Of a stretch of 64,000 bases of DNA, positions 120 through 58,475 are shown one piece after another. This stretch comes from Glaucostegus cemiculus (taxonomy: Eukaryota), in contig CDPCPM010000077.1 in NCBI GenBank assembly GCA_976551045.1, forward strand, positions 1,674,001 to 1,738,000, in the 5' to 3' direction. The notes beneath the pieces were generated by a model. The model was not told the DNA's origin. It did not search any database and worked only from the letters and a program-made list of their open reading frames with translations. A program made the position numbers and the translations under genes. Numbering within the stretch: position 1 is the stretch's first letter; each line of letters begins with the position of its first letter.

Positions 120-1380
120 ATCCCTTTCCTTATTGCCTACTTGGTGGTTCTTTGTTGCTTTTTATAAGTTTTTCCAGTCTTCCAGTTTCCCACTATTCTT
201 GGCGACTTTGTATGCGTGAGCTTTCAGCTTGATTCCTCCTTTTATTTCCTTAGCTATCCAAGGCTAGCTCTCCCACCCTTACTGTCCTTGCTTTTAACTA
301 GAGTATACTTTTGTTGAGCACCGTGAAAAGTCTCTTTGAAAGTCTTCTACTGTCCCGTCTTATAGCCTGTTTATCCAGTCTACACTAGCCAGCTCCTCCC
401 TTATCCCATAGTAGTCTTCCTTGTTTAGGCATAATACACTGGTTTTAGATTGAACTATTGTACCCTCCATTTGTATGAGAAATTCAATCATACTATGATC
501 ACTCTTTCTGAGGGGATCCCTAAAAACAAGGTTGTTAATTTTACCTGTCTCATTGCACAGGACCAGATCTAAGATAACATTTTCCCTTGTAGGTTCACTA
601 ACATGCTGTTCAAGAAAGCTGTTACGGGTGCATTCTATGAAGTCCTCCTCAAGACTGCCTCGACCAACTTGATTCACCCAATCGATGTAGAAGTTAAAGT
701 CCCCCATGGCAACTGCCGTTCCATTCTTACATGCATCAAATAATTCTTGGTTTACTGCCTGTGCCACTGTACTGTTATTATTCAGTGGCCTATAGATAAC
801 TCCCACCAGTGATTTTTTTTTTCCTTTTACTGTTCCTAATTTCTACCCAGATGGACTCAACATTCTGCTCCCTAGATCTTGTATTGTTTCTCACTGTCGC
901 CCTGATCTCATTCTTAATTAAGATTGCTACCCCACCTCCCTTACCTTCTTGCCTATCCTTCTGTGATCTTATTACCTGATACCCTTGCATATTTAATTCC
1001 TACTCATCTCCACCCTGCAACCATGTTTCTGTAATGGCCACTAACTCATACCCCTTTGTACTAATTTGTGCCCCAAGTTCACTCATCTTGTTTTGAATAC
1101 TATGGGCATTCAGATAAAGTGCTCTTACACTCATTGTCCTTTTAGAATCTAGTAACCTTTGTGTCCTTTGCGTTGGACTCCTCTGCACTCCACTCTTACT
1201 TTTCTCTTTTCTAACTTCTGCTCTGGTCTCTGCTTTGCTTCCCTCTGTCTTTCTGCATGGATTCCCATCCACCTGCCATATTAGTTTGAACCCTCCCCAA
1301 CAGCACAAGCAAACAATCCCCATTGATCCCAGTCCTGCCCAGGTGTAGACCATCCAGTTTGTACCGGTTGGCAGACGTGG
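120..1380 (-). mobile_element. CR1 LINE fragment: end of ORF1 (SGNH esterase) and AP-endonuclease region of ORF2, frameshifted
   Basis: Minus-strand ORFs give RYKLDGLHL (esterase DxxH), LYLNAHSI..ELVAITETWL, GKGGGVAILIK, ESIWVEI, GVIYRP, MGDFNF, LDLVLCNE and SDH. Confidence 0.9.
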
Positions 1381-1711
1381 GCTGAGACAGAGGCACAGTG
1401 ATAGAGACTGGGGCAAAGTCTCCCCCCGAGGCTCATGATTGAGGGAGGAGTTTGGTGTTGTCTTAGTTAGAAGTTTCCATTCTTTGACTCCTCACTTAGT
1501 TCAGGTACATGTTGTCCAGCTGCCATAATCAACGCGACAGTATTTCTTTCTCTTAAGCGATCTCTCAACACATTTCTAGAGTGGGGGATACAGCTCCCTA
1601 TCCCTATCCAGGCAACCATTGCGTTTCCATTGCATCTGTCCGTCTACTTGCCCTGCAGATTTTCTAGCCTATTATTCAGATGTCCCTCTGAGAAAAGCAG
1701 CACAGCCCCAT

Positions 1712-11373: not shown

Positions 11374-12765
11374 GACACAAGATGCTGGAATCGTAGCAAC
11401 ACACACAAAATGCTGAAGGAACTCAGCAGGTCAGGCAGCATCTATGGAGGGAAATAAACAGTCGACGTTTCGGTCCTTCATCAGGACTGGAAAGAAAGAG
11501 GGAAGAAGCCAGAATAAAAAGGTAGGGGGAAGGAGAGGAGCACGAGCTGGCTGGTGCTAGGTGAGTTCAGGTGAGAGGGGAAAGGCAGGTGGGTGGGAGA
11601 GGAAAGGGAATGATGAGAGAAGCTGGGAGGTGATAGGTGGAAGAGGCAAAGGGCTGAAGAAGGGGGAATCCAATACGAGAGGACACTAGACCATGGAATA
11701 AAGGGTCGGAGGTGGGGAACCAGAGGGAGGGGATGGGCAGGTCATGAGGGCGGTGGGGGAAGAGCAAAGAGAAGGGGTGAGGGGGCCACAGGAAAGAAGG
11801 AAAACAAAGTGGGGAGGTGGAAGGGAGAACAGGAGGGGTTACCGCAAGTTAGAGAAATCGATGTTAATGGTGTCAGGTTGGAGACTACCAGGACGGAATA
11901 TGAAGTGTTTCTCCTCCAACCTGTATCTGGCCTCAGCGTGGCAGTAGATGAGGCTGTGGACAGATGTGTCAGCACGGGAAGTGGAATTGAGTGGCCACCA
12001 GGAGATCCTGCTTGTTGTGGCAGATAGAGTGAAGGCGCTCGGCGAAGGAGTCACCCGATCTGCGTCAGGACTCACCGATGTAGAGGAGGCGACGCCATTT
12101 ATTACTGCATGCAATAAATGACACCCTCAGATTCACAGATGAAGTGCTGCCTCACCTGGAAGGACTATCTAGGGCCCTGAATGGTGGTGAGGGAGGAGGT
12201 GTAGGGGCAGGTGTAGCACTTTGCATGTTGCAGGGATAAGTGCCAGGAGGGTGATTGATGGGGAGGGAAGAGCGGACAGTGGAGTCACAGAGAGAGCAAT
12301 CCCTATGGAAAGCGGAGAAGAGGGGGAGGGGAAGATATGATTAGTGATGGGATCCCATTGAAGATGGCAGAAGTTCCGGAGAACGATATGTTGGGTGCGG
12401 AGGCTCGTGGAGTGGTAGGTGAGGACAAGGGGAACCCTATACCTCTTATGTTGGGGAAGGGGAGGGAATAAGGTGAGGGCAGATTGTGGGAAATGGAGGA
12501 GATGTGGGTGAGGGCTGCATTGATAATGTGGAAGAGAAACTCTGTTTACAGAAAAAAGAGGACATCTCTGATGTCCTGTAATGGGAAGCCTCATCATGAG
12601 AACAGATGTGGCAGATGAACTGAGAGATGGGAATAGCATCCTTAAAAGCAATAGGGCAGGAAAAGGTGTAGTCAAAGGTAACTGTGGGAGTCAGTGGGTT
12701 TGTAGAAGATGTCGGTGGATAATCTGTCTCTGGAGATGGAAGCAGAGATCATGAAAAGGGAGGGA
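11374..12765 (-). mobile_element. Penelope-like retroelement (Neptune-type), 5'-truncated: RT thumb, Cys knuckle, GIY-YIG endonuclease, 3' UTR/pLTR
   Basis: Minus-strand peptides RVPLVLTYH..LRTQHIVLRNF.HLQ.DP..IFPSP, PGTYPCN../KCYTCPY (~12200-12250), GVIYC...LLYIGES (~12068-12126), RLEEKHFIFRPGSLQPDTINIDFSNLR*; followed by a pyrimidine-rich UTR and hammerhead motif. Confidence 0.9.
11459..11489 (-). ncRNA. Minimal type-I hammerhead ribozyme motif (core intact, stem II shortened)
   Basis: Minus strand reads CAGTC CTGATGA AGGACC GAAAC GTC GACTG: stem I CAGTC/GACTG, CUGAUGA and GAAA cores, GUC cleavage triplet; same sense as the Penelope ORF. Confidence 0.7.
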
Positions 12766-15045: not shown

Positions 15046-15726
15046 TAGGGGAAATTCTATTGCGGATCTTCTTTGCGAGATCCTTTAGAAATCCCCACTA
15101 TTAATTAATGTGTTTATGAATTTTAAGTGACATCAGGGACCCAAAATCCGACAATAAAACAAAAACAGTTTTATTTATGTTATTGAAGATCGAGGACTTG
15201 CTGCATGGAGTGCAGAATAAGTGATTTTACTTCCACTTCCACTTCCACCGTGCCTGAAATGCCTACACCCACTGGCTCTCAATGATGAGCAACACACACT
15301 TATGTGTGACTTAATTGCCGTGGTCAGTGCAGCCAGCGTGCATAGGCAGGATTTCTCTGCACCTGTGAAGTCTGAGCTGGTCACAAGGTGACTTTGGGAA
15401 CCCAGGTCAAGTAGGTCACTAGTTGCTGTCTAGCCTGCTTCTTCAGACACCCTACCCTGTCTCCCAGATTTCCTCTCCTTCAGCTTGTGACCCTCACTCA
15501 ACACCTCTCGCCTTTCAATCTCACCCCCAACTACTGACCAATACACATCCCCCATGCCTGATCGCCCCTTAACTACCGACACCCATACTTCAACTCCCGA
15601 TCATAGGCCCTCCCAAAGACTGAACCATGATTGAATGCCTCATCTCATGAACAGCTCACACCCTGATCCCTCTACCTATCGGCCTGATCCCTCACCCTCT
15701 CCTCCATACCCAACCAGACAGAAAAG

Positions 15727-16287
15727 TAGCAACACACGATCTGCTGGAGGAACTCAGCGGGTCGAGCAGCATCTATTGTGAATGTTTGGGTTAAAACCCT
15801 GCATCAGGACTGAGAGTGGAGAGGGGAAATAGCCAGTATAAAGAGGGGGTGAGACAGAGATGATTGGTGGACTGAGGAGGGGTTGAAAGATGACGGACAG
15901 GTTGCAGCAGGTGGGAGAGGGGAGGGGGTCGAGTTGGGAGACATTGACAGATGGATGATAGCTGGAGGCAGATAAAGAGAAAAAAATGAGAGGCATTTGA
16001 GGGGAGGGTGAAAGTTGCAGACAACTGCTGGAGGGAGATTCACAGGAACACAAAGGGCTACCGACCGGTGCTGGAATCCGATAAATAAAGGAGGTGATGA
16101 TGGGGAAGTGGGGAAGTCTATGGGTGAACTGTGTGTGTAGCAGGTGGATGGAACCAGGAAGGGGAGGGAAGAAACATCGGCAATCCCTCACCCCCCCCCC
16201 CGCCCCTCCACAGATGCTGCTCGACCTGCTGAGTTCCTCCAGCAGATTGTAGCTCCAGATTCCAGCATCTGCAGTCTCTTGTGTCTC
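15727..16287 (-). mobile_element. Penelope 3' UTR/pLTR fragment bounded by inverted pLTR copies
   Basis: 15739-15774 atctgctggaggaactcagcgggtcgagcagcatct is inverted at ~16212-16246. Degenerate hammerhead on the minus strand at ~15781-15812 (GTC CTGATGC A GGGTT TT AACCC AAAC). Confidence 0.8.
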
Positions 16288-16944
16288 CAGACTGGAGGAT
16301 AAACTGGTACGCAAACTGACAAGAAAGCTTTCAAAGCTACATGTGGTTGCTGGAAGAACTTTGTAATTTTATCCCTGCTCCCCCCTCCAGTATTAAAGTA
16401 CTTGAGTGGTTTCAGTGATGAGATGGTATACTGCATTTTACATGGTCATCTGTCAGCCATCACTCATCGCAGTAGGTACATTCACCCCAGAGAGTCCTCA
16501 AAGTTGGATGCAGCGTCCAGCTTCCCTGTCATCAAGCTCATTGAGAGTTGTGTGTTGACACTGGGTTGTATCGCACATCACAGGAACAAACAGGAATTTC
16601 ATGCTTTGCATTCTTCTTTAAAGAGCAGGCAGCTCAGGGCATCCAGCAGGGATCAGAGGCACACGCTGTTAATGAGCAAACATTTGCTCTGCACCTTGAG
16701 ACAGCTAATAAAACCACGGTTTAACATCTCGCCCAAGCGCTGGTGTCTTTGATAGCGCAGGACTCTCTAGGCAGTCCACACCAGTAAACATGCATTCTGT
16801 CGTTCCTGGAAAGTATCCCTGAAGGTGATAAAGTAGGAGCGGGGGCAACTGACAATCGATGGCTTTGCACTGAATGTTGTCCTCTCTCTATATTATAGCC
16901 TTTGTTCATTTTTGCAGAAGAATGAAATTTTAGCATAAATTTGA

Positions 16945-17876
16945 GTCACAAAAGACTGCAGATGCTGGAATCAACAACTCTGCTTTCACCAGTCTCTCAG
17001 GCGGTGTATTCCAGGTACTCACCGATCTCTGGGTGAATGTACTCGGTGACTGAGCTGCCACGGCTCTGGTGAATTCCAAAGATCCATCACCCTAGGGGTG
17101 AAGCTTCTTCTCATCTCTGACCTGAATGGTGAAACAACCTGCAGGAGGAACTCGGCGAGTTGAGCAGCATATTCCGACTGGGAATTCTACAAACCAGTGG
17201 CATGAACATTGAGTTTTCCAGCTTTCGGTAGACCTCCTCTCTGGTGTGTTATTCCTCTTCCCCACCACCCCCCTTTCCAATCCTCCTCCCACCTTTGTCA
17301 CCCTTCCCTCCTCCCCATCCCCTTATCACCCATCTTTGCCTCCCTCCCCCTTCTTAGTTCACTCACAGGTTCCTTCCCCCCATCCCCTCCCCAATCTGGT
17401 TTTTGTTCCGTCCGCCACTCATATCTCCCTGAATGGTTCCTGCTTCACCTCCTTTACATATCAGATTCCAGCACTGGGAGTCTTATGTGTTTCTGCTAAT
17501 CACCCTCCAGGATTCACCCTCCCCTCACTTCCCCCCCACCTCACTCCCCCCACCTCACTCCATCTGCCTCCCATCTTTTTGTCTGCCTCCATCTATCAGC
17601 CACCTGCCTCTTGTCTTCCAAATCCCCCCCTTCCACACCCCTCTTCCTCAACTTGCCTGTCATTCTTCACCCCCTCCTCAGTCTACCAATCACCTACTGG
17701 CCCCTGTCTCACCACTCCCCTTTTCCTCTGTACGTGGGCTATTTCCCCCTCTCCATTCTGTCCTGATGCAGGATTTCAAACCAAAACGTTGACAATTCCT
17801 TCCCCCCCACCCTGCCCCACCCCATCACAGATGCTGCTCGACCTGCTGAGTTCCCCCAGCAGATTTTTTGTTGCTT
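16945..17876 (+). mobile_element. Penelope 3' fragment with inverted pLTR piece at its 5' end, itself interrupted by a CR1-derived segment
   Basis: Inverted pLTR pieces at 16945-16972 and 17132-17170; ORF end IFRLGILQTSGMNIEFSSFR* from ~17170; pyrimidine-rich UTR; degenerate hammerhead 17758-17795; terminal cagatgctgctcgacctgctgagttcc. Confidence 0.8.
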
Positions 17877-18189
17877 AAGAATAAACTGGCTGGTTATTGC
17901 CAAGTTTATTGTAATATCTTGCTTTTCCACCTTCTACAAAAGCTGAGCTTGCCTCCTCTGAAAACAACCTCGATAATTCCTCCTTTCTCCTCGGCATCCA
18001 TCATTATGAGAACCAGAAATGTGCCTTTAGCCATGTCAGTGTTCTTTTGCATGCATCATCATTCACTCTGTCCTTTCAAAGCACCTGGCCACAATCTTAA
18101 ATGCATTCATTCCACAACTTCACTCTTTCTATTCATTAGACATGTTTGCATCTAAGCTGCTATTGCCCTTATTATTTCATGGTCTAAAA

Positions 18190-18529: not shown

Positions 18530-19500
18530 AGAACCATAACCCATCATAATATGAAATATAAGCAGGAGTAAGTAATTTGTTCTCTTGTACCTACTGCTCC
18601 ACTTAAGATAAGATTTCTTTATTAGTCACATGTACATCGAAACACACGGTGAAATCCATCTTCTTGCACCAAGTGTTCTGGGGACAACCCACGGGTGTCG
18701 CCACACATCCAGCACTAACATAGCATGCCCACAGCTTCCTAACCCGTATGTCTTTGGAATGTGGGAGGAAACCGGAGCACCCGGAAGAAACCCATGCAGA
18801 CACAGGGAGAATGTATATTCTCCTTACAGACAGCGCCCAGAATTGAACCCGGCTTGCTGGCGCTGTAATAGCAACACTGATCCTTTATCTAAATGGCACT
18901 TCCCTGCATTAACCTAATTTCCCATAGTATCAAAAATCTTTCCGTCTCTGCCTTGAATATAGAGTTATAGGGTCATTCAACATGGAAACAGACCATTCGA
19001 CCCACCAAATCCATGCTAACCAGTGGACACCCATCTGTCTGCCAGCAGTCTGTCCATGGCCTTCTATGCCTAGGTGATTCAAATGCTTGTCTAGAAACTC
19101 ATTAAATGCTGTCAGCAACTCTGCTTCCACCAGTTTCTCAGGCAGTCTATTCCACGTACTCACCACTCTCTGGGTGAATATATTCAGTGGCTGAGCATCC
19201 ACAGCAGTCTTAGCTAGTGAATTCCAAACCACTCTTTGGGTGGTGAAATGTCTCATCTCTGACCTCTGTGGCCAAATCCTTTACTTTGAGACTTTGACCC
19301 TGTTTCTCTTCAGCCAGGAAACCATCAACTCCACATCTTCCCTTTGAAGCCCCTGAAGGGTTTTGTATGTTTCAATGAGATCTCCTTTCATCTAAACTTG
19401 AGAGAACAAGGTTAACCATACAACAAGTCTGCCATCCCTAGAATCAATCTGTGAAACTTTGCTGCATTTCTTCAATCACAAGTATATCCTTCCTTAAGTA
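18530..19500 (-). mobile_element. CR1 3' end containing a nested V-SINE (18605-18878) and a nested second CR1 tail (18962-19174)
   Basis: ORF 18930-19256 shows the motif twice (FTTQRVVWNSL.. and IFTQRVVSTWNRLP). The inner CR1 is flanked by tgaatata at 18954-18961 and 19175-19182. Confidence 0.75.
18605..18878 (-). mobile_element. Young V-SINE subfamily with Rex1-like tail
   Basis: Reverse complement of the element at 49224-49521. Confidence 0.9.
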
Positions 19501-20012: not shown

Positions 20013-21321
20013 GATGGTATTGGTTTATTATTGTCACTTGTACCGAGGTACAGTGAAAAGCTTGTCTTACAAACTGATCATACAGGTCAATTCATTACAC
20101 AGTGCAGTTACACTGAGTCAGTACAGAGTACATTGATGTAGTGCAGATAAAAACAATAACAGGACAGAGCAAAGTGTCACAGCTACAGAGAAAGTGCAGT
20201 GCAATATGGTGCGAAGTCACAACAAGGTAGATCGTGAGGTCAGAGTCCATCTCATTGTATAAGGGAACTGTTCAATAGTCTTATCATAGTGGGGGTAGAA
20301 GCTGTCCTTAAGTCTGGTGATATGTGCCTTCAGGCTCCTGTATTTTCTATCCAATGGAAGAGGAGAGAAGAGAGAATGACCTGGGTGGGTGAGGTCTTTG
20401 ATCATGCTGGCTGCTTCACCAAGACAGCGAGAGGTAAAGATAGAGTCCAAGGATGGGAGGCTGGTGTCTGTAATGTGCTGGGCTGTGTCCACAGCTCTCT
20501 GCAGTTTCTTGCGGTCCTGGGTAGAGCAGTTGCCGTACCAAGCCATGATACATCCAGATAGGATGCTTTCTGTAGTGCATTGATAAAAGTTGGTGACAGT
20601 CAAAGGAGAAAAAACAAATTTCCTTAGCCTCCTAAGGAAGTAGAGGCACTGGTGAGCTTTCTTGGCAGTGGCATCTACATGATTTGACCAGGACAGGCTG
20701 TTGGTGATGTTCACATCCAGGAACTTGAAGCTCTCAACCCTCTCGACCTCAGCACCATTGATGTAGACAGGTGCATGTACACTGCCCCCTTTCCTAAAGT
20801 CAATGACCAGCTCTTTTGTTGACATTGAGGGAAAGGTTGTTGTCATGACACCGTTCCATTGAGCTCTCTACCTCCTTCCTGTACTCTGACTCATCGCTGT
20901 TTGCGATATGGCCTACAATGGTGGTATCATCTGCAAACTTGTAGATGGAGTTCGAGCAGAATCTGGCCACACACAGTCATGAGTGTATAGGGAGTAGAGT
21001 AGAGGGCTGAGGACGCAGCCTTGTGGGGCACCAGTGTTGAGAATTATCGTGCCGGAGGTATTGCTGCCTATCCTCACTGATTGCAGTCTGTTTGTTAGAA
21101 AGTCAAGGATCCAGTTACAGAGGGAGGTATTGAGTCCTAGGTCTCGGAGTTTGGTGACAAGCTTGCTTGGGATCATTGTATTGAAGACAGAGCTGGAGTC
21201 AATAGATAATTGTCTAACATAGGTGTCTTTACTGTCCAGATGCTCCAGAGCTGAGTGGAGGGCCAGGGAGATGGATTCCACTGTAGTCCTGTTTCGGCAG
21301 TAGGCGAATTGCAATGGGTTC
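20013..21321 (-). mobile_element. Rex1/Babar LINE, 5'-truncated (RT domain to 3' UTR), frameshifted
   Basis: [63 protein letters not shown]; TKELVIDFRK..VERVESFKFL..LSWSNH..KKAHQCLYFLRRLRKF..ESILSGCI.AWYGNC. Confidence 0.93.
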
Positions 21322-21687
21322 AAATGGCAAATAAATTAAACAGTTATCTTGCATCAGTCTTCACAGTATAGGATACACAAAACATCCCAGAAATAGTTGT
21401 AAATCTGGAATTGGAAGGGAGAAGGACTAGAGAAAATTGCAATCACCATGGCAATGATAGGGAGCAAAATGTCGGAGCCACAGGCTGACAAATGCCGAGG
21501 TCCTGATCAACTTCATTCCAGGAACTTAAGAGAAGAGGTCGATATGGGTAATTAGACCACAAGACATAGGAGCAGAATTAGGCCATTCAGCCCTTCGAGT
21601 CTGCTCCTGAAGAGCAGAGTTGATGTGTTAGATTTTATGTCCCAAAATCTCCTGGATTCAGGGTAAGTTGCATTAGGTTGGAAAATC

Positions 21688-23551: not shown

Positions 23552-23935
23552 CTAAAATATTGAATTCTCCCACTTTGGGTAATCCCCACAATCCCCCCCC
23601 CCCACCCCCCATGCTTCTTCTCTTCTTCCCTTTCCTAGCCTTTTTTCCTCTTTTACCTTTGACCCATCCCCCGGTGGATCTGCTCTCCACTCCTCCCCCA
23701 CACATGCCCATCACTGTCTCTTACCTGCATCTACCTAACACCACCCTGTGCCCACCCGGCCTCCCCTCTTTTGTTCACCTATCACCGCTCTGTTTTTCCC
23801 TTCTATATATTGGGCTTCCCCTTTTCCTACCTTCAGTCCTGAGGAAGGGTCCTGACCCGAAACGTTGACCGCCTGCATTTCTCCACGGATGCTGCCTGGC
23901 CTGCTGAGTTCCTCCAGCATCATCATGTTTCTCAT
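23552..23935 (+). mobile_element. Short, relatively young Penelope 3' fragment with near-intact hammerhead
   Basis: ORF end aatattgaattctcccactttgggtaa (NIEFSHFG*), pyrimidine UTR, hammerhead, pLTR tail. TSD caggatct(g)aaaatgg at 23537-23551 and 23936-23951. Confidence 0.85.
23834..23871 (+). ncRNA. Minimal type-I hammerhead ribozyme motif (best-preserved copy)
   Basis: CAGTC CTGAGGA A GGGTC CT GACCC GAAAC GTT GACCG: CUGANGA core, extra A after A9, 5-bp stem II, GAAA, loopless palindromic stem III (ACGT), GUU triplet, stem I 4/5 paired. Confidence 0.75.
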
Positions 23936-42730: not shown

Positions 42731-42911
42731 TACCAGAAAAAAAGGTCAGACGCTAGAAATAGCTCTACACCATTTTCTCCAGCGTTCGGTGCTGTGGGTC
42801 ACCCTATCAGTATTTGTGAAAGCCGTACAAAGCGCCAGAACCTCAGCTGTGAGCTTCACAGAATGGCATGTTGCGTAAAATCAAACTAAAATTGACATTG
42901 TTGGCTTTGGT

Positions 42912-45420
42912 GCAGGATGTGGGGTACAAATTACAACAGGAGATAGAAAAGGCATGTAAAAAGGGCAATGTTATGGTGGTCATGGGGGATTTCGATATGC
43001 AGGTAGATTGGGAAAATCAGACTGATACTGGATCCCAAGAGAAGGAATTTGTAGAATACCTACAAGATGGCTTTTTAGAGTGGCTTGTGGTTGAGCCCAC
43101 TGGGGGAAAGGCAATTCTGGATTTGGTGTTGTGCAATGAACCAGATTTGATCAGGGACTTGAGGAAAAAGGAACCCTTAGGAGACAGTGATCGTAATATG
43201 ATAGAATTCACCCTGCATCTTGAGAAGGAGAAGCTAAAATCTGATGTACCAGTATTACAGTTGTGTAAAGGTAACTACAGAAGCATGAGAGAGGAGCTGG
43301 CCAAAGTTGATTGGAAGGAGACCCTAGCAGGGATGACAGTAGAGCAGCAATGGCAGGATTTTCTGGGAGTGATTCAGAAGACGCAGGATCAGTTCATCCC
43401 AAAGAAGCAGAAGCATTCTAAAGGGAAGATGAGGCAACCATGGATGACAAGGGCAGTCAAAGACAGCATAAAAGCAAAAGAGAGGGCATACAATATTGCT
43501 GAACTTAGTGGAAAGCTAGAGGATCAGGAAACTTTTAAAAACCAAAAGAAGGCAACTAAAAAGGCAATAAGGGGAGAAAAGACAAAATATGAAGGTAAGC
43601 TAGCCAATAATATAAAAGAGGATACCAAAAGTTTTTTCAGATATATAAAGAGTGAAAGAGAGGGAAGAGTGGATATCGGACTGCTGGAAAATGATGCTGG
43701 AGAGATAGTAATGGAGAACAAAGAAATGGTGGAGGAACTGAATAAGTATTTTGTGTCAGTCTTCACTGTGAAAGACACCAGCAACGTGCCAGAAATTTGA
43801 GAGAATCAGGGAGTAGAAGTGAGTGTAGCCATTATTATTAAGGAGAAGGTGCTTTGGGAAGCAGAAAGGTCTGAAGGTAGGTAAGTCACCTGGACCGCAT
43901 GGACTATACCCCAGGGTTCTTAAAAGGAAGCTGAGAGATTGCGGAGGCATTAGTAGTGATCTTTTAAGAATCATTAGATTCAGGAATGGTTCCGTAGGAC
44001 TGGAAAATCACAAATGTCACTTCACTGTTTAAGGAGAGATGGAAGCAAAAGACAGGAAATTATAGGCCATTTAGCCTGACTTAAGTGGTTGGTAAGATGT
44101 TAGACTCCATTATTAAGGATGAGGTTTCGAGGTACTTGGAAGCACATGATAAAAGAGGCCGAAGTCAGCATGGTTTCTTTGAGGAGAGATCTTGCCTGAC
44201 AAATCTGTTGGAATTCTTTGAGGAAGTAATGGGCAGGGTAGACAAAGGAGAGTCAGTGGATGTTGCTTGGATTTTCAGAAGGCTCTTGACAAGGTGCCAC
44301 ACATGAGGCTGCTAAACAAGATAGAAGCCCATGGTGTTACAGTAAAGGTACTAGCATGGATAGAAAATTGGCTGACTGGCTGAAGGCAAAGACTGGGAAC
44401 AAAGGGGACCTTTCCTGAGGCTGCCGGAGACTAGTGGTGTTCCGCAGTGGTCAGTACTGGGTCCCCTACTTTTCATATTATATGTCAATGATCTGGATGA
44501 CAGAATTGATGGCTTTGTGGCCAAGTTTGCAGATGTTACAAGGATAGGTAGAGGGGCAGGTAATGTTGAGGGAGCAGGGAGTCTGCAGAAGGACTTGGGC
44601 AGGTTGGGAGAATTGGCAAACGAATGACAGATGGAATACAGTGTAGGGAAGTGTACGGTCATGCACTTTGATAGAAAGGATAAAGGTGCAGACTATTTTC
44701 TAAAATAAGAGCAAATTCAGAAACCAGAGGTGCAAAAAGACTTGGGAATCTGAATGCAGGATTCCCTAAAGGTTAACTTGTAGGTTGATTCAGTAGTAAG
44801 GAAGTCAAATGCAATGTTAGCAATCATTTCGAGAGGACTAGAATATAAAATCAAGGATGTAATGCTGAGGCTTTATAAAGCATTGGTCAGACCATATTTG
44901 GAGTATTGTGAGCAGTTTTGGGCCCTATATCTAAGGAAGGATGTGCTGGCATTGGAGAGGTTCCAGAGGAGGTTTTACAAGAATGATCCTGGGAATGAAA
45001 GGGTTAACATACAAGGAGCATTTGATGGCTCTGGGCCTGTACTCACTGGAGATTAAAAGGACGAGGGGGGATCTCATTGAAACCTACCAAATATTGAAAT
45101 GCTTGGATAGAGTGGACATGGAGAGGATGTTTCCAGTAGTGGGAGAGTCTAGGATCAGAAGGCACAGCCTCAGAAGAGAAGGACATCCCTTTAGAACTCA
45201 GATGAGAAGGAATTTCTTTAGTCAGAGGCTGGTAATTCTGTGGAATTCATTGCCACGAATGGCTGTGGAGGCCAAGTCATTGGGTATATTTAAAGTGGAG
45301 GTTGATAGGTTCTTGATTAGTAAGAGCATCAAAAGTTACAGGGAGAAGGCAGGAGATTGGGATTGAAAGGGAAAAGTAAATCTGCCATGATTGAATGTCT
45401 AATTCTACTCCTATGTTTTA
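42912..45420 (+). mobile_element. CR1 LINE, ~2.5 kb 5'-truncated copy (end of endonuclease, RT, tail), with stops and frameshifts
   Basis: VMGDFD..LDLVLCNEP..PLGDSD..PWMT..KSFFRYIK..LNKYFVSVFT; GNYRPFSLT; SQHGF..RSCLTNLLEFFEEV; tttgcagatg (FAD); LYKALVRPYLEYCEQFW; MRRNFFSQRLVILWNSLP. Confidence 0.95.
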
Positions 45421-45857: not shown

Positions 45858-46421
45858 GCCAAAAACAAACTGCTGGAGGAAATCAATGGGTCAAACAGCA
45901 TCTGTGGAGACCAACCTTGTCAAAATGCACCTAGATACAATAAGCTATCTTTGTTAGTCACATGGACATCGAAACACATACCGAAATGTATCTTCTGCGT
46001 AGAGTGTTCTGGGGGCAGACCGCAAGTGTCGCCACGCTTCTGGCGCCAACATAGAATGCCCACAACTTCCTAACCTGCACGTCTTTGGAATGTGGGAGGA
46101 AACAGGAGCACCCAGAGGAAACCCACGCAGACACAGGGAGAACATACATACTCATTACAGACAGCGGCCAGAATTGAACCTGGGTCATTGGCGCTGTAAA
46201 ACATTACGCTAACCGCTACACTACCGTGCCTCATTAAAAGCCTCGACTTCTCCACTCCGCTCACCCACGCCAACCTCACCCCTCTGAGCAAGCAGCTCTC
46301 CACTTACTCTGCACCAATCCCAACCTTGTCAAACGTCTCCACAGATGTTGCTTAACCCATTGGATTCCTCCAGCACTTTGGTTTTTTGCTCCAGATTCCA
46401 GCATCTGCAGCCTCCTGTGTC
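45858..46421. mobile_element. Fold-back Penelope pLTR element with a ~410-bp central insert
   Basis: 45871-45910 (tgctggaggaaatcaatgggtcaaacagcatctgtggaga) is inverted at 46336-46375. Direct repeat ccaaccttgtcaaa at 45911-45924 and 46320-46333. Confidence 0.75.
45945..46230 (-). mobile_element. Young V-SINE with Rex1-like tail, full length
   Basis: Reverse complement of 49224-49521; ends ..gctaaccgctacactaccgtgcc. Confidence 0.9.
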
Positions 46422-47034
46422 TAGGTTATTGGTGACTGAGTGCCATCTGACAGCACTGTTGATGACACCTTCCATCACTTTGCTACTCATTGAGAGTAGA
46501 CTGGGCGAAATGAGCTTAGTTAGATTTGTCCCGCTTTGGTGAACAGGCCATCCCTGAGCAATTTTCCACCTTGGGTAGATTCCTGGATTATAACCGTACT
46601 GAAGCAGCCTTGGTAGAAGCATAGCTAGTTCTGGAGCACGTCTTCAATATTCCGGCACAGATATTCCCTGGACCCGTAACCTTTACTGTATCCAGTGCTC
46701 TGAGCTATGGAATGAATCAAATTGGTTAAGGGCTGACCTGTGATGTTTGAGATCTCAGAAGAAGGCCAGAGACCTACACTGCTCACTCTGGCTGAACATG
46801 GTTGCTTTAACTTCCTCTTCAGCACTAACCTGCTGGGTCCTGCCATTGTCTTCAGCAACTCCTCATCCCATGAGCTGTTTAATTGTCCACCACCATTCAC
46901 AACTAGTTGTAGAAGAACAGCAGAACATTGATTCGATCCACTGGTTGTGAGATCACTTAGCTCTCTGCGTACTGTTTTATTTTTCCTTATGGTATGTATT
47001 ATCATCCTGAATTATAGCTTCACCAGACAAGAAT

Positions 47035-47843: not shown

Positions 47844-48459
47844 TAAACTGGAACTCCTAAACGCATCAAATGGTTGCAGCACTTAGCATAGATGGATCGA
47901 AAGTGAAGTTAAATAAATATATGAGGGAAAGTAATTGGAAGTCCTGACAACAAGGAGGGAGTTTGTATGGAACATAAACACTGGCAGACAGATGTCAGAC
48001 CGAATGACCTGTTTCTGTCCTGTAAAATTCTATGAAATTGCATGATATCTGTGGAAGATTCAGTTTTGTGATGCTTGCTTTATCTGATAATGACTGGAAC
48101 AGAATTATCTGCTTGAAAGACTACTGGAAAATATATTCGAATCTATCCTGTTCACATCAATTGCCATCATATTTATCATGTGAAAGGTTTTCAAAAAGGA
48201 ATTGAGCCTTTGAAGTGTTGAAAAATACTTGTAAATGCAGCAGTCCCTTTGAATGCTGACTCTGATGCAACACTATATTTTTTGTAGATATATACAGCCA
48301 GGATTATGGAGTGAAAGAGTGATTTTTAAAGGAGAATGGAAATGATCTGGATCAAAGTGAAGAAAATTGGAAACAAATTTTGAAATGAAAAAGCATAATT
48401 TTTCCTCTGTCTATTGAATGTTAGTTTCTGTTGTTTAAAACAAACCCGTTTGTTATACA

Positions 48460-49015
48460 GGGACACAAGATTCTGCAGATGCTGGAATCTGGAGCAACAC
48501 ACAAAATATAAGATGATGAGAGGTATGGATCGGCTAGATAGTCAAAGGCTTTTCCCCAGGGCTGAAATGGTGGCCACAAGAGGAGATAGGTTTAAGGTGC
48601 TGGGGGAAGATATAGGGGAGATGTTAGGGGTAAGTTTTTTACTCAGGGAGTGGTGAGTGCGTGGAATGGACTGCCAGAGATGGTGGTGGAAGCGGATACG
48701 ATAGGGTCTTTCAAGAGACTGTTGGATAGGTACATGGAGGTAAATAAGATAGAAGGCTATGGGTAAGCCTAATAGTGTGGGGACATGTTCAGCACAGCTT
48801 TGTGGGCCGAAGGTCCTGAATTGTGCTGTAGGTATCTATGTTCTATGCTCTAAAAAGTGCTGAAGAACCTAGCAGGTCAGGCAGTGTCTATGGAGGGAAA
48901 TAAACAGTCGACGTTTCGGGTCGAGTCCTGATGAAGCGTCAACCGTTTATTTCTCTCCATAGATGCTGCCTGACCAGCTGAGTTCCTCCAGCACTTTTTG
49001 AGTGTGTTGCTCCAT
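48460..49015. mobile_element. Fold-back Penelope pLTR mini-element interrupted by a CR1 3' fragment (48507-48851)
   Basis: Arms ~48853-48915 and ~48937-49000 are inverted; the apex holds hammerhead pieces (cagtcgacgtttcgggtcga / gtcctgatgaag). Perfect TSD tttgttataca at 48449-48459 and 49016-49026. Confidence 0.85.
48507..48851 (+). mobile_element. CR1 3' fragment
   Basis: YKMMRGMDRLDSQRLFPRAEMVATRGDRFKVLG..; tail gtgggccgaaggtcctg..tctatgttctatg. Confidence 0.9.
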
Positions 49016-49223
49016 TTTGTTATACAAAATATAGGACTATTTATATTTAATTTCATTAAAGTATTAACTGCAGCAGAAATAGTTGCATTTTTTGCAGTCA
49101 CTTTCTCAGTTTTCCCATATCATAGGCCGCTTTCAGGGTAAGAAGTGGGATGGGAAGCTTCATTCCAGTGCTGTAGTAATTGCTGGTTTTTATAAACCCA
49201 TTGGGGTTGGTCTTTTACATTAA

Positions 49224-49521
49224 GGCAGGCACAGTAGTGTAGCGGTTAGCATAACGCTATTACAGCGCCAGCGATCCGGGTTCAATTCCGGCCGCTGTCT
49301 GTAAGGAATTTGCATGTTCTCCCCGTGTCTGTGTTGGTTTCCTCTGGGTGCTCCAGTTTCCTCCCACATTCCAAAGACCTACGGGTTAGGAAGTTGTGGG
49401 CGTGCTGTGTTAGCACCGGAAGCGTGGCGACACTTGCGGGCTGCCCCCAAAACACTCTACGCAAAAGATGCATTTCACTGTGTGTTTCTACGTACATGTG
49501 ACTAATAAATATACCTTATCT
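49224..49521 (+). mobile_element. Young full-length V-SINE with Rex1-like tail
   Basis: Pol III A box TAGTGTAGCGG 49235-49245, B box GGTTCAATTCC 49279-49289, V core, tail gcatttcactgtgtgtttctacgtacatgtgactaataaa. Confidence 0.92.
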
Positions 49522-52744: not shown

Positions 52745-53375
52745 GAAAAAAAAATGCAGATGCTGGAAATCTAAAATAAAACCAGAAAGTGCTGGAAATA
52801 CTCAGCAGGTCAGGCCACACCTGTGGGAAGAGGAACAGAGTTAATGTTTCAGGTCAAAGACCCTTCATCAGAATTGTGAAAGAGATAAAAGAACCTTGTT
52901 AATTGCAGGACAGGTGGGGAAGGAGGGTAAAACCATGGGGATAAGCTGTAAACAAGGTTATCTGGTCAATGAGTGAATGGGAGCAAATAGAGAGCAGGGG
53001 ACATTGACAAAAGAATGTAGGAGTTGCAAAATGCAGAGCAGGAAGATGTGCCCGGCAGTTCAGGCTGGGTATGTCCTCCACTTCCAGTGCAAATAAAAAG
53101 GGAAAAAAAGGGAGCAAAAAAACAAACAAGCCGAGCCAATATCACAGACAGATGACTGATACTGTCAGAAATCAAGTTACCTGAAGTTGTAGAATTTCAT
53201 GGTGAGTTGAGAAGGCTGTATCGAACCCAGGTGGAAGATGAGGTGCTGTTCCAGAAGCTAGCCTTGGACCTCATTGTAACAGTTCACGAAAGCATAGACT
53301 GATAGGTCAAAGTGAGAGTGAAGGTGTTGGGTAACAGGAAGCTCAGGGTCACTCCTACAGACTGAATGTAGGTAC
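52745..53375 (-). mobile_element. Penelope 3' fragment (ORF end, UTR, hammerhead, pLTR tail)
   Basis: Minus strand EQHLIFHLGSIQPSQLTMKFYNFR* (~53177-53252), then UTR and pLTR ctgacctgctgagtatttccagca..atttccagcatctgca. Confidence 0.85.
52839..52875 (-). ncRNA. Hammerhead ribozyme motif (core and stem II intact, stems I and III decayed)
   Basis: Minus strand AATT CTGATGA A GGGTC TTT GACCT GAAAC ATT AACT. Confidence 0.6.
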
Positions 53376-53494
53376 TTGATTTTTGCTTTCCTCTATTATA
53401 TCAGTGATTGCATCTGACAAGTTGTTTACTCTGAAAGGGACACAAAAGGTGCTATATAGATCCAAGACCTTTTCAGTTTACTCAGTGTTCTTTT

Positions 53495-54300
53495 ACGTTA
53501 GAACATAAGTAAACAGAGCAGGAGTAGGCTATATGGCTCTTCAAACCTGCTCCACCATTCACCGAGAACATAACGGATCTTCCACCTCAGTGTCATTTTC
53601 CAACACTATCTCCATATCCTTTGATTCTCTTATTGCCCAGAAATCATTCTCAATGAACTGACTGACTGGACTTCCATAACTGTCTGGGATAGAGAATTTC
53701 AAAGGCTCACCACCTTCTGAGTGAAGAAGTATCTCCTCATCTCAATCCTAAACAGTTTGTCCCTTATTTACAAACTGCTACCTGGGTCTAGACTCCTCAG
53801 TCAGGGGAAAACACCCTTCCTGCATCAAACTTGTCAAACCCTTTTAACAATTTCAATGATATCTTCTCTCATGTTTTTTTAAAACTAAAGAATGCAGTCC
53901 ATGTATACTCATCTTTCCTCATATGGCAAACCTGCCATCCCTGGTACCAGTCCAATAAACCTTCACCTAAGTCCCTCTGCTCCCTTTTTTGTTTCCTTTT
54001 TTTTGCTGTGGAAATGGAGGACATACACAGGCTGACCTGCTGGGCATGTCTTCCTGCTCTGCATTTTGCAGTTCCTACATTCTTTTGTCAATGTCCCCAC
54101 TCTCTATTTGCTCCCATTCACTCATTGACCAGATAAACCTTGATTACAGCTTATCCCCATGGGTTTACCCTCCTTCCCCACCTGCCCTGCAGTTAACAAG
54201 CTTCTTTTGTCCCTTTCCTAGTTCTGACGAAAGGTCTTCCATTCCACGTAAAGAGACAAAAACTATCCACAATACTCCAGGTGCAGTCTTACCATTTCAT
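53495..54300 (-). mobile_element. Old CR1 3' fragment containing an inverted copy of nearby Penelope UTR (53979-54238)
   Basis: Tail agaacataag..gagcaggagtaggc..; ctgggatagagaatttcaaagg; CR1 resumes after 54240 with aactatccacaatactccaggtgcagtcttacca. Confidence 0.7.
53979..54238 (+). repeat. Inverted duplicate of 52857-53115
   Basis: For example, ctctctatttgctcccattcactcattgaccagataa and tacagcttatccccatgg are exact reverse complements of segments in 52933-52994. Confidence 0.9.
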
Positions 54301-55440
54301 AAGACGTTAGAGCAGAAATAGACCGTGCAGGCCCTCATGACTGATCTTGCCTAATTCCAGTAACCCTTGATTCCTATAAAGTCTAAGAATCTATTCAACT
54401 GACCCAGTCTCCATCTCTCTCGGGCCTTCAAAAATTCCAAACACATACAAGTCCTTGAAAAGAACCCCTGCCTCACCTAAGTGATAAATAGTCAACTCCT
54501 TTTGCTGAGAAAGCTCCCTAGCTCTGTGGAAAAACCTCAGACCGTTGATCCTACCACCCTCTCTCCCTTCACTACACCAAGACACGTATTTCAAGGGGAT
54601 TGTGTCCCATTCCTCTAAACTCTCCCGAGTTTCCTCACTTGATCGTCTGCATCTTTCCCTATACCACCCTCTCCCATTGGCTTCTCCTCCATCTCCTTGC
54701 CCCTCCTCCTGCTCCCTTTTCCATCTGCTTCCATTCTTGCTCTATGAACATTCGGACACAAACAGCAGCTTTCACTGAAGATTGATTTGTTTTCTGTTGA
54801 TCTATCATTAGCCGATTGCAACAATACAGAAGGTACTATTCCAATGGGATTTGATGCTGTGAAAGTGTTTTTGAATGTAATTTCTAGCTTGTTATTTTAT
54901 CAATTACTATTTAACAAAAATGCCCAGCATGTTTACATATTAATTACCTTTTTCATTCACACTAAATTAAAGAATGCTCCACAAATGCCCAGAAGATTTA
55001 TATCCTATTAAATAGCAATATGTAATTAGTGCAACAAATAAGAATAACACCTTGAAACATTACAACTTATCTTACGAATGGGAACTGTAAAGTATTTATT
55101 TGCGTAAAGATTAAAAAAAACATTGAAACTGTTTGTCAGTTGTATTCCATTTATATCGTTGGTAAAAAAAAAACTCACCGGTGGATTAACATGGCATATC
55201 GCAATGAAACTGAAACTGAAAAATAAATTTGACTTACTAATCCTATTTTTTGTTTATGTCATTGGCCCATGACATTTGGTTCAATGCCAATTCCCTCATG
55301 CTAGTCTTTTGGAGGTACAGGTATATCTCTCACTGACAATCCACTGTGAATCCTCTTCTTGTACTGCCGTTTCTACCATACCGCTTACTGATGTGAACGC
55401 TTATCAGCTGCCACATTGAAGGACGTGGGAAAGGGTTTGA

Positions 55441-55612
55441 GCAGGTCAGGCAGCATCTATGGAGAGAAATAAACAGTTGATGCTTCATCAGGTCTCGACC
55501 CAAAATATCGACTGTTTATTTCTCTCCATAGATTCTGCCTGACCTGCTGAGTTCCTCCAGCATTTTGTGTGTGTTGCTCCAGATTCCAGCATTTGCAGAA
55601 TCTCTTGTGTCT
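55441..55612. mobile_element. Fold-back Penelope pLTR mini-element
   Basis: gcaggtcaggcagcatctatggagagaaataaacagt (55441-55477) pairs with actgtttatttctctccatagattctgcctgacctgc (55511-55547); apex cttcatcag/gtctcgaccc. TSD aaagggtttga at 55430-55440 and 55616-55626. Confidence 0.85.
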
Positions 55613-56233
55613 GGAAAAGGGTTTGATGGTCCACTCAGCCTCTGACACTTTATTAGCCCATTTTACCTCTGGCTACATTACTAATGTAAATCCAACTGAG
55701 AATAAATTTATATGAAGAGTTTATCATTTGATTGGGAGGCCAAAACACTTCATTATCTTTTATTGCCCTTTGCATTTCCCACTGCAAATTGCAAAATAAT
55801 GGACACATTATTTATATTAGTTTTTTTATTATATGTGTTCAGCAGGAATTATCACTTTGATTCATCTTTCAACACCTTGTTTAAAAATAGCATTTCAAGT
55901 TTAAGGTGATCAGTTGGAATAATGTGCAAGATCTGGTGAGATAGTCATGTTCTATTGTACTGTATCCCTATTTAGTTTCAAGGAAAATAGTTTGATACAG
56001 ACAGGAATGTTGAAGAGATTCGTGGACTTATTCCCTCCAGGGTAACGCCAGGCAGGGGACATAAAAGATTGGACTAAAAAATCTTAGTTTGTCTGACTCT
56101 GAATTCCAATGGTAATATTGAGAATATAATTAGCTTTGTAAGTCCTATTTTAAAAGAAAGAAAATGCTCAGTTTGAAAGCTGACAGAAAATCTTTCGGTG
56201 CTCAAAAACAGTTAATGACCTTTCTTCTTAAAG

Positions 56234-56497
56234 GTATGAAACGGCCATTAAGTCCTCCTCTGCCTCCTGAAAGTGGTGATGCAGATGCTTCCTTGGTGAA
56301 CGAGGATGTCACGGAGTTGCAATCTGTTACCACAGACAGCGCACAGAAGCGAGAAAGAAAACTCCAGACTTTCACTCTTTGTGGGGTTTGTAACATTCAG
56401 CTCAACTCTGCCGCTCAGGCCCAGATCCACTACAATGGCAAATCCCACCAAAAACGACTTAAAAAGCTTCATAATGGAAAAATGCCCACAAGCCAAG
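56234..56497 (+). CDS. ZNF385C: Coding exon of a ZNF385-family RNA-binding zinc finger gene, most like ZNF385C (first matrin/U1-type finger)
   Basis: Acceptor ...atgacctttcttcttaaAG|GT ATG at 56232-56233 and donor CAAG|GTAAGG at 56498; 264 nt, phase 1-1. Translation MKRPLSPPLPPES...KRERKLQTFTLCGVCNIQLNSAAQAQIHYNGKSHQKRLKKL contains C-x2-C-x12-H-x5-H. The MKRPLSPP start and KRERK..TLC.VCNIQLNSAAQAQ.H match my recollection of the long ZNF385C isoform. Family assignment is firm; the paralogue is less certain. Confidence 0.85.
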
Positions 56498-57235
56498 GTA
56501 AGGTTGGAATGAGGTGTGCTGAGAAAAAGGGGTTTCCCATAAACCAGTACATCTGGTTCATCCTTTAACAAAAGCAACCCAATTAGGTGAACTACTCACA
56601 GAGAGAAATAAGGTTCATTGTCATGGTATTAATCATGTGTGTGAGAAGGGGAGTTATCCCTGTTGATGACTTATTGCTTGTCCAGGAAAGATTACTCTTA
56701 AAGGATCCATTATGGCTAATTGTTAAGTTTACGTTATCCTTTGGAAAGAAGGGAGTTTTGAGCATTAACTGTGAACAGGGATGGAAAACATCGATTACAC
56801 CTCTAGGCTCACATCTGCCTCTGAAACAAGATGTCACTCCTTTGCATGAGAGGCTGGCTACTTCCCATCTCTGCCATGTCTCTGTTCTAAGAAATGGCCA
56901 TGAGTTTCTTTATAGTTCATCCTTCTCCATGACTCCAGTAGCAGAATGATGCTGTGAATTGGTTGATGCAGCAAGACCACCAATTGGGAATTCCCTGGCC
57001 ACTTCCGATTCTGAGATTTGTTATTTATTTGTCCACATACTGCCAAGGTTCCAAATCTGTGCTTTGAGAGAGGTAAGTGAGAAAATGTATTCACAGAATC
57101 TGACTTGTCACCACTGTCCAAAGGAAAGAAGGGGATAGGTAAACCACAGGCAGAGTCCCTGAGTGAACCATTTGGCCCAGGGAAAGTAAAGGAATTCACG
57201 TCAGCTTGGACTTTGCACTGTTGTATTACAATACA

Positions 57236-57515
57236 GGCATAGCGTCACGCTATTACAGTGCCAGCAACCAGGGTTCAATTCTAGCCGCTGTCTGTAAGAA
57301 GTTTGTATGTTCTCCCCATGTCTGCGTGGGTTTCCTCCGGGTGCTCAGGTTTCCTCCCACATTCCAAAGACATACGGGTTAGGAAATTTTGGCCATGCTA
57401 TGTTGGCACCAGAAGTGTGGCGACACTTGCAGGCTGCCCCCAGAACACTCTATGCAAAAGATGCATTTCACTGTGTGTTTGGATGAACATGTGACTAATA
57501 AAGAAATCTTATCTT
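57236..57515 (+). mobile_element. Young V-SINE with Rex1-like tail
   Basis: Same as 49224-49521 with a short deletion in the head. Confidence 0.9.
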
Positions 57516-58169: not shown

Positions 58170-58475
58170 GGCAGGCACGGTAGTGTAGCAGTTAGCAAAA
58201 CGCTATTACAGTGCCAGCGACCTGGGTTTAATTCCGGCTGCTGTCTGTAAGGAGTTTATACGTTCTCCCCGTGTCTGCGTGGGTTTCCTTTGGGTGCTCC
58301 GGTTTCCTCCCACACTCCAAAGACATACGGGTTAGGAAGTTGTGGGCGTGCTATGTTGACGCCGGAAGTGTGGCAACACTTACAGGCTGCCCCCAGAACA
58401 GTCAACACGAAAGGATGCATTTCAATGTGTGTTTCGATGGACATAACAAATAAAGATCTTATCTTATTGTCTTAT
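58170..58475 (+). mobile_element. Young full-length V-SINE with Rex1-like tail
   Basis: ggcaggcacggtagtgtagcagttagc..gggtttaattcc..V core..gcatttcaatgtgtgtttcgatggacataacaaataaagatcttatcttat. Confidence 0.9.

Follow-up and report, generated by a model that had tools for sequence, protein, structure and literature searches.

Three short non-coding insertions in the analyzed stretch of 64,000 nucleotides of Glaucostegus cemiculus DNA (the window), located at positions 1712–1905 (E1), 48460–49014 (E2), and 55441–55611 (E3), are genuine insertions, each consisting of two head-to-head pLTR ends of a Penelope-like element (PLE) between long target-site duplications (TSDs). They are mostly ordinary and are likely dead by-products of the fold-back copying already known for PLEs. 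The oddity is a rearranged centre common to two neighbours, E2 and E3, whose arms are likely derived from distinct source copies.

Architecture of the fold-back insertions

The arms of E3 were located at 55440–55481 and 55507–55548 (42 nt, 95% complementary), and the corresponding head-to-head pairs were found at 48862–48917 and 48933–48988 in E2 and at 1797–1835 and 1842–1880 in E1. The folding z scores were −6.4 for E1, −14.0 for E2, and −9.3 for E3, and an equally good fold was reached by none of the 200 shuffles of each element. The paired arms and these scores bear out the first-pass annotation, which had described the three insertions as head-to-head copies of the pLTR tail. The hairpins are reduced to two pLTR ends, with a unit size of 170–200 nt. 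Their arms are unequal, as had also been claimed; a tail of approximately 33 nt, lying between an inner and an outer end, occurs on the long arm only in E1–E3 and in a fourth fold-back, E4, described below, and the short arms stop further in. The inversion had been placed inside the hammerhead motif, and all three junctions do lie in or at its 5′ half.

In E3, the left TSD (55426–55440) is followed by the short arm (55441–55482, minus strand), an inverted pLTR end without the tail that extends from the last hammerhead bases to an inner stop. Abutting this arm is the centre (55483–55492, minus strand), which corresponds to the 5′ half of the hammerhead core in inverted orientation and lacks helix II and the GAAA (15 nt). 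The long arm (55491–55611, plus strand) contains helix II, a mutated GAAA and cleavage region, the pLTR end, and the tail (approximately 55579–55611), and its limits are supported by loose contig ends before 55491 and behind 55612. The right TSD occupies 55612–55626. E2 begins, after its left TSD (48449–48459), with the long, tailed arm on the minus strand (48460–48924), which is split by the 3′ end of a LINE (48507–48851, plus strand) that was inserted later in an A-run of the arm. This LINE piece, which we take to be a CR1, matched the LINE ORF of the window at 44935 (tblastn, E = 2.4e-13), confirming that E2 was interrupted by a LINE, as the earlier annotation had stated. The centre and the short arm of E2 (48925–49014, plus strand) have the same junction and the same 15-nt loss as E3; the short arm stops at the inner boundary of the tail, and the right TSD lies at 49016–49026. 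E1 belongs to a different subfamily; its tailed arm is on the minus strand, and its centre (1831–1846) lies on a natural inverted repeat.

The separate, long TSDs reported previously were recovered for all three elements: 13 bp with one mismatch for E1 (1699–1711 and 1906–1918), 11 bp exact for E2 (starting at 48449 and 49016), and, for E3, either 11 bp exact (55430–55440 and 55616–55626) or 15 bp with one mismatch (starting at 55426 and 55612). Eleven exact matches were reached by none of 1,500 random position pairs, where the search range was ±8 nt for the null and ±25 nt for the elements. Seven of the 10 elements tested for TSDs, which were the longer or linear ones, remained at the chance level of 5–6 exact matches.

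The ends of the arms were concentrated at a few positions. Among the 13 arm ends printed, seven were at the outer end of the tail, four were at its inner boundary (approximately 33 nt in), and two, the short arms of E1 and E3, were approximately 30 nt further in. When contigs from four related genomes were aligned on E3 (42,227–82,399 contigs per run), loose ends piled up behind 55612 in all four (645–826 contigs) and also accumulated before 55491. This pile-up, together with the one-sided tail, is the tail signature of PLEs. In vitro, the PLE Poseidon of Anolis carolinensis uses two reverse transcriptase (RT) start sites that bound a tail of 30–40 nt, cuts and extends each strand of the target, and can dispense with ribozyme cleavage for insertion (PMC11167929). 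Inverted pLTRs, a 31-bp tail, TSDs of 8–10 bp, and palindromes at the inverted junction that were read as self-priming have been described for PLE units, for which pLTRs suffice for mobilization in trans (PMC3846280).

E1–E3 have the tested features of the endonuclease-positive (EN+) PLE insertion unit, namely an RT/GIY-YIG family, a hammerhead motif, an inverted 5′-truncated pLTR, a one-sided tail, a variable long TSD, and a junction palindrome, and they fail the tests for MITEs, retrozymes, and microRNAs. The published EN+ PLE units with inverted pLTRs (PMC3846280; PMC8557442) share with E1–E3 the head-to-head inverted pLTR, the one-sided tail of 30–40 nt, the long TSD, a short junction palindrome read as self-priming, and later microhomology deletions. 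They differ in the length of the TSD (8–10 bp, versus 11–15 bp here), and the elements in the window are distinguished by retaining only two pLTR ends (170–200 nt), by a junction in the 5′ half of the hammerhead, and by the presence of two neighbours with one rearranged centre. The likeness to Poseidon (PMC11167929) covers the tail bounded by two RT starts, the cutting and extension of both strands, and the dispensability of ribozyme cleavage; our elements are known from their genomic footprint alone, and their parent, which has a CxxC linker, is likely of the Neptune type. The non-LTR retrozymes (bioRxiv 10.64898/2026.07.22.740005) are likewise short, non-coding, pLTR-derived, and hammerhead-related, but they are described as units repeated directly in tandem, each with a functional ribozyme, whereas E1–E3 are inverted and ribozyme-dead. 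MITEs are also short non-coding hairpins, but E1–E3 lack symmetric termini and a fixed short TSD and have a retroelement origin.

The parent family and other copies in the window

An arm-type end was located 3′ of a broken ORF (11839–12760, minus strand), within a linear, 5′-truncated PLE of the E2/E3 subfamily (11376–12760, minus strand) that comprises the broken end of the ORF (RT thumb, linker, and GIY-YIG), the 3′ UTR, the hammerhead, and the pLTR end. The last 49 residues of this ORF matched 18 proteins in a full HMMER search. Nine of these were scanned, and one contained GIY-YIG alone, one contained RVT_1 and GIY-YIG, both GIY-YIG scores being below the Pfam cut-off, and three were unrelated repeat proteins. 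The protein P0010 covers the PLE ORF of the window (tblastn, E = 3.5e-33); it had no Pfam match, and its RT, CxxC linker, and GIY-YIG motifs were recognized by eye. The broken PLE fragments of the window itself had no match in Pfam, and one word-based protein search with them found nothing. Because the linked broken ORF matches PLE proteins, the arms are assigned to the pLTR ends of an endonuclease-positive PLE. The CxxC linker was present in the reading frames of the window and in the related proteins, which suggests that the parent PLE is likely of the Neptune type; the motif has been described previously and is also shared by Nematis (PMC8557442).

The hammerhead of the linear PLE copy at 11376–12760 has a 7-nt loss in helix II that is distinct from the loss in E2 and E3, and helix II losses are thus recurrent in this family. 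A linear pLTR copy at 23800–23935 (plus strand) contains the whole core of a minimal hammerhead and a natural 17-nt inverted repeat (23831–23847), and was used as a reference. The pattern search used the consensus letters of the hammerhead core, and a hit denotes a sequence match. The whole core pattern was found in two of the 14 stretches tested, both of which were linear copies (at 23839 and 52871) with the core, helix II, the GAAA, and the cleavage triplet, and no helix III; it was found on none of the six strands of E1–E3. The two linear copies are consistent with the minimal type I hammerheads of PLE pLTRs (PMC4209133), whereas E1–E3, with no whole core on either strand, have lost the ribozyme. 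The term "ribozyme-centred" used in the first-pass annotation is therefore a misnomer.

A fourth short fold-back, E4 (45859–46422), belongs to another PLE subfamily, and its arms stop 3′ of the ribozyme. Its loop contains an inserted repeat of approximately 400 nt with a 14-bp duplication (45911–45924 and 46320–46333). The repeat landed exactly in the loop, which may reflect insertion at the apex of the hairpin. Two longer inverted PLE units were also found. One (15722–16289) lies next to a further inverted PLE unit of the same other subfamily (16944–17878), and its forward arm starts at the hammerhead GAAA (16171). The other (52755–54238) has arms of approximately 380 nt, of which the left reaches the end of the ORF (53180–53380) and the right stops inside helix II; no clear TSD was identified for this unit. 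Considering E4 and these longer units, the short hairpins represent the short end of a continuum in which the breakpoints are often, but not always, at the hammerhead.

Among the other repeats in the window, an interspersed repeat of approximately 290 nt, presumably SINE-like, occurred at 45940–46231, 18608–18868, 49227–49519, 57240–57512, and 58173–58470, its copies being 82–86% alike. Broken LINE ORFs were found at 42853–45366 (plus strand), 360–1491 (minus strand), and 20217–21335 (minus strand); the ORF at 42853 had an endonuclease–RT match in Pfam, and the ORF at 20217 had an ALKBH8_N match.

Junctions and the shared centre of E2 and E3

The natural inverted repeat in the linear copy at 23831–23847 consists of 5 bp with a 7-nt loop and overlaps the start of the catalytic core. 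A single gap sufficed to fit a palindrome modelled from this unrelated linear copy to the centre of E1, and, out of 5,625 placements of the E1 junction, the best ones were on the axis of the inverted repeat. The loop is antisense on the E1 strand that starts with the tailed arm (score 55.1 versus 47.1), as expected if a tail-primed cDNA snapped back and copied itself. In its sequence, E1 therefore fits the snap-back of a cDNA made on a sense RNA, and self-priming at palindromic inverted junctions is an idea already published (PMC3846280). The stability of the 5-bp repeat does not exceed that of shuffles (z = 0.97), and only some of the linear copies have it in full. Fold-back at the self-complementary ribozyme stems had been proposed in the first-pass annotation; such a fold-back, or a template switch, in the vicinity of the hammerhead is indeed the likely origin, but the stem at the E1 junction is neither helix I nor helix II.

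The centres of E2 and E3 tell a different story. The plus strand of E3 and the minus strand of E2 are identical at 97 of 107 positions through the centre, with no gap, so the earlier statement that the inversion point falls on a different nucleotide in each element is valid only for E1. Relative to the palindrome model, the centre lacks 9 nt on one side, where the gap falls between GACC and GTCC, and 15 nt on the other, comprising helix II and the GAAA, where it falls between GAAG and GAAA; the 15-nt loss was read by eye from the long arms and the loose-end consensus, and the aligner put that gap at 8 nt. The losses are thus flanked by micro-repeats at offsets of 9 and 15, and the centre is a deleted and flipped form of the 17-nt inverted repeat. 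The orientation of the loop is opposite to that in E1, suggesting that plain self-copying from the tailed end could not make E2 or E3 and that a second primed cDNA or a flip would be needed. Reading the centre as a mutated helix II would need four substitutions and a 2-nt gap, and the E2 centre had an exact 12-nt match to the upstream consensus in all four runs; this reading was rejected. A segmental duplication was ruled out by the unrelated flanks of the two elements, which also have opposite orientations and separate TSDs.

The two elements do not share the arm variants of a single master; the arms of E2 carry one variant and those of E3 another. Specifically, both E2 arms have a C-plus-T5 variant, and the long arm of E3 and two linear copies have T4; the C at 55563 is a variant present at 23–25% in the family in four related runs. 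At the site equivalent to 55507, A is present in both arms of E3 and G in both arms of E2. The short arms of the two elements have in common a G-to-A change, located 5 nt away from the centre and absent from the long arms, but it is at a CpG site and is thus weak evidence of common descent. In the comparison of E3 with a linear copy there were 85 matches and seven substitutions, and E2 is no nearer to E3 (97/107). The tails of E2 and E3 showed 42 matches, two substitutions, and one 2-nt gap. The one difference at the junction itself, A versus T at 55493, coincides with the mismatched position of the 9-nt repeat, the pattern expected of two separate joins.

The shared centre is rare in four related genomes. 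Contig depth, which is not equivalent to copy number, was, at the centre-only position 55489, 0.14–0.28% of the depth at 55502, 13 nt away. The same position was covered, in all four genomes, at 15–45 times the depth of a single flank contig (29–75 times in the inclusive table), which again is depth and not copy number; this is how we infer the two depth columns at 55489 should be read. Many different small indels were present in contigs at the E3 centre. Four of the 32 contig pieces listed crossed the centre with near-equal spacing and 17–24 differences each; these four need not share the E2/E3 centre, and one may be the orthologue of E2. Within the window, the exact junction occurred in two copies. 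The centre motif had no matches in viral contigs, and the tail motif had none in viral and prokaryote contigs; two matches of the centre motif in metagenome contigs were attributed to chance, as no pLTR surrounded either. We found no published report of a PLE family of shared-centre hairpins in elasmobranchs in the mostly open-access literature searched.

Origin of the insertions and their meaning

The PLE protein would make staggered nicks 11–15 bp apart, and synthesis of a cDNA on the pLTR RNA would start from the outer tail site. In E1, this cDNA would snap back on the natural 5-bp inverted repeat and copy itself briefly. In E2 and E3, either a second priming of cDNA or a subsequent flip of the loop would be involved; a slip between the GAAG and GAAA repeats would skip 15 nt across helix II, and the join between the GACC and GTCC repeats would fall 9 nt short. 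With such micro-repeats, two different source RNAs would end up with an identical centre. The resulting insertion would be inert DNA, forming a dsRNA stem only if crossed by host transcription; a dsRNA hairpin from transcription of the elements is structurally plausible. E3 is likely a dead one-off insertion, in which reverse transcription halted at the 5′ boundary of the hammerhead and an inverted copy was attached.

For E2 and E3, we lean towards separate insertions with a convergent centre; this and the gradings that follow reflect rough weighing, not computation. At least two rearrangements are required to make this rare centre, so two independent events 6.4 kb apart are unlikely a priori (the probability of a neighbour within 7 kb is 1e-4 to 6e-4 per copy, given 15–75 copies in 1.7 Gb), and the A/T difference at the junction could be plain mutation, since three of the 10 central substitutions are A/T. 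Ectopic gene conversion would dispense with this coincidence. E1–E3 would again be independent insertions, and the centre of E2 or E3 would later have been overwritten from its neighbour after breakage of the young palindrome, accounting both for the proximity of two copies with a rare centre and for their different distal arm variants. It would also agree with the change beside the centre shared by the short arms, and unspaced inverted repeats are reported to attract homology-directed repair in mammalian cells (PMC3300023); the fragility of palindromes and snap-back at 5–9-bp repeats have been reviewed (PMC7999016). We nevertheless regard conversion as a doubtful, although possible, origin. 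The centre (97/107) is no more alike than the tail (42 matches, two substitutions), so no young tract is seen, and the A in the E3 arms versus the G in the E2 arms next to the centre would limit the tract to approximately 27 nt. Moreover, the depth at the centre implies more short-centred hairpins elsewhere, whose origin would still need explaining. Convergence, our preferred reading, shares with conversion the premise of separate insertions, which the different arm variants and the rarity of the centre make likelier than a self-propagating family.

Such a family is improbable, even though E2 and E3 have the identical apex that the first-pass annotation had named as its hallmark; that identity stands, but the variants in the arms indicate separate source copies, and few copies have this centre. 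It would be a small, non-autonomous PLE family of sharks and rays, inverted and not tandem, in which a ribozyme-dead fold-back master is transcribed and the RT of a Neptune-type protein, acting in trans, starts at the unpaired tail of the hairpin RNA and re-inserts the copy with variable truncation of the short arm, 11–15-bp TSDs, and local hopping. Such a master would account for the doubly rearranged centre common to both elements, for their opposite orientations, unrelated flanks, and separate TSDs, and for a tailed end that is fixed and a short arm that varies. It would also fit the depth across the centre in all four genomes and the four crossing pieces. Furthermore, ribozyme cleavage is reported to be unneeded for insertion in vitro (PMC11167929) and pLTRs to suffice for mobilization in trans (PMC3846280). 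Weighing against it, the arms differ by family-type variants common to both arms of each element, the indels at the centre are many and different, and the crossing pieces, with their 17–24 differences, may lack the E2/E3 centre. Nor would tens of copies place two within 7 kb by chance, given the probability stated above. Scarcely credible is an origin as MITEs moved by a DNA transposase or as microRNA genes, for which the hairpin shape and weak Rfam matches to MIR856 and MIR2275 could be cited. These matches scored 29–40 bits, far under the gathering scores (29–32 versus 60.5 bits and 40 versus 297 bits). The MITE reading is refuted by the unequal arms and the 11–15-bp TSDs; the termini are asymmetric, the duplications are long and of varying length, and the arms derive from the ends of a PLE, in agreement with the earlier view of the hairpins as products of PLE retrotransposition.

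E3 lies approximately 620 nt upstream of an exon (56236–56508, plus strand) that begins after an acceptor-like AG and encodes a matrin/JAZ-type zinc finger matching ZNF385C/D, the four best matches being from sharks and rays, at 89–94% identity, as befits the DNA of a cartilaginous fish. No other exons of this gene were found in the window. Given this downstream exon, E3 is probably intronic. Single-depth contigs run from the left flank into E3 for 25, 27, and 13 nt in three of the four organisms; these pieces have 15–18 differences each, most of them in the flank, and although the overlaps are below the 31-letter bar for bridging, they follow the element and not the sequence of an empty site. 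One single-depth contig crosses the right junction in one of the four organisms. Since flank contigs continue into E3 in related species, E3 likely predates the species whose flanks differ by approximately 10%. No empty site was seen among the best 15 of 379 joints, the right flank being under a long piece in one of the four runs. Joints on E3 in the "opposite strand" configuration were set aside as likely artefacts of aligning contigs on a hairpin.

The short hairpins are a countable footprint of PLE priming, recorded in the position of the junction and in the direction of the 7-nt loop relative to the tailed arm. An earlier study leaves undecided whether a sense or an antisense template gives rise to inverted PLE ends (PMC3846280). 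Each elasmobranch run contains tens of thousands of contigs of the family, and counting such footprints across a whole genome could discriminate between the models of priming. If the shared centre of E2 and E3 marks a re-mobilized hairpin, it would represent a small new type of non-autonomous retroelement, a retro-mobilized counterpart of MITEs; otherwise, the finding is a point of annotation, namely that hairpins of this kind should be annotated neither as MITEs nor as microRNAs.
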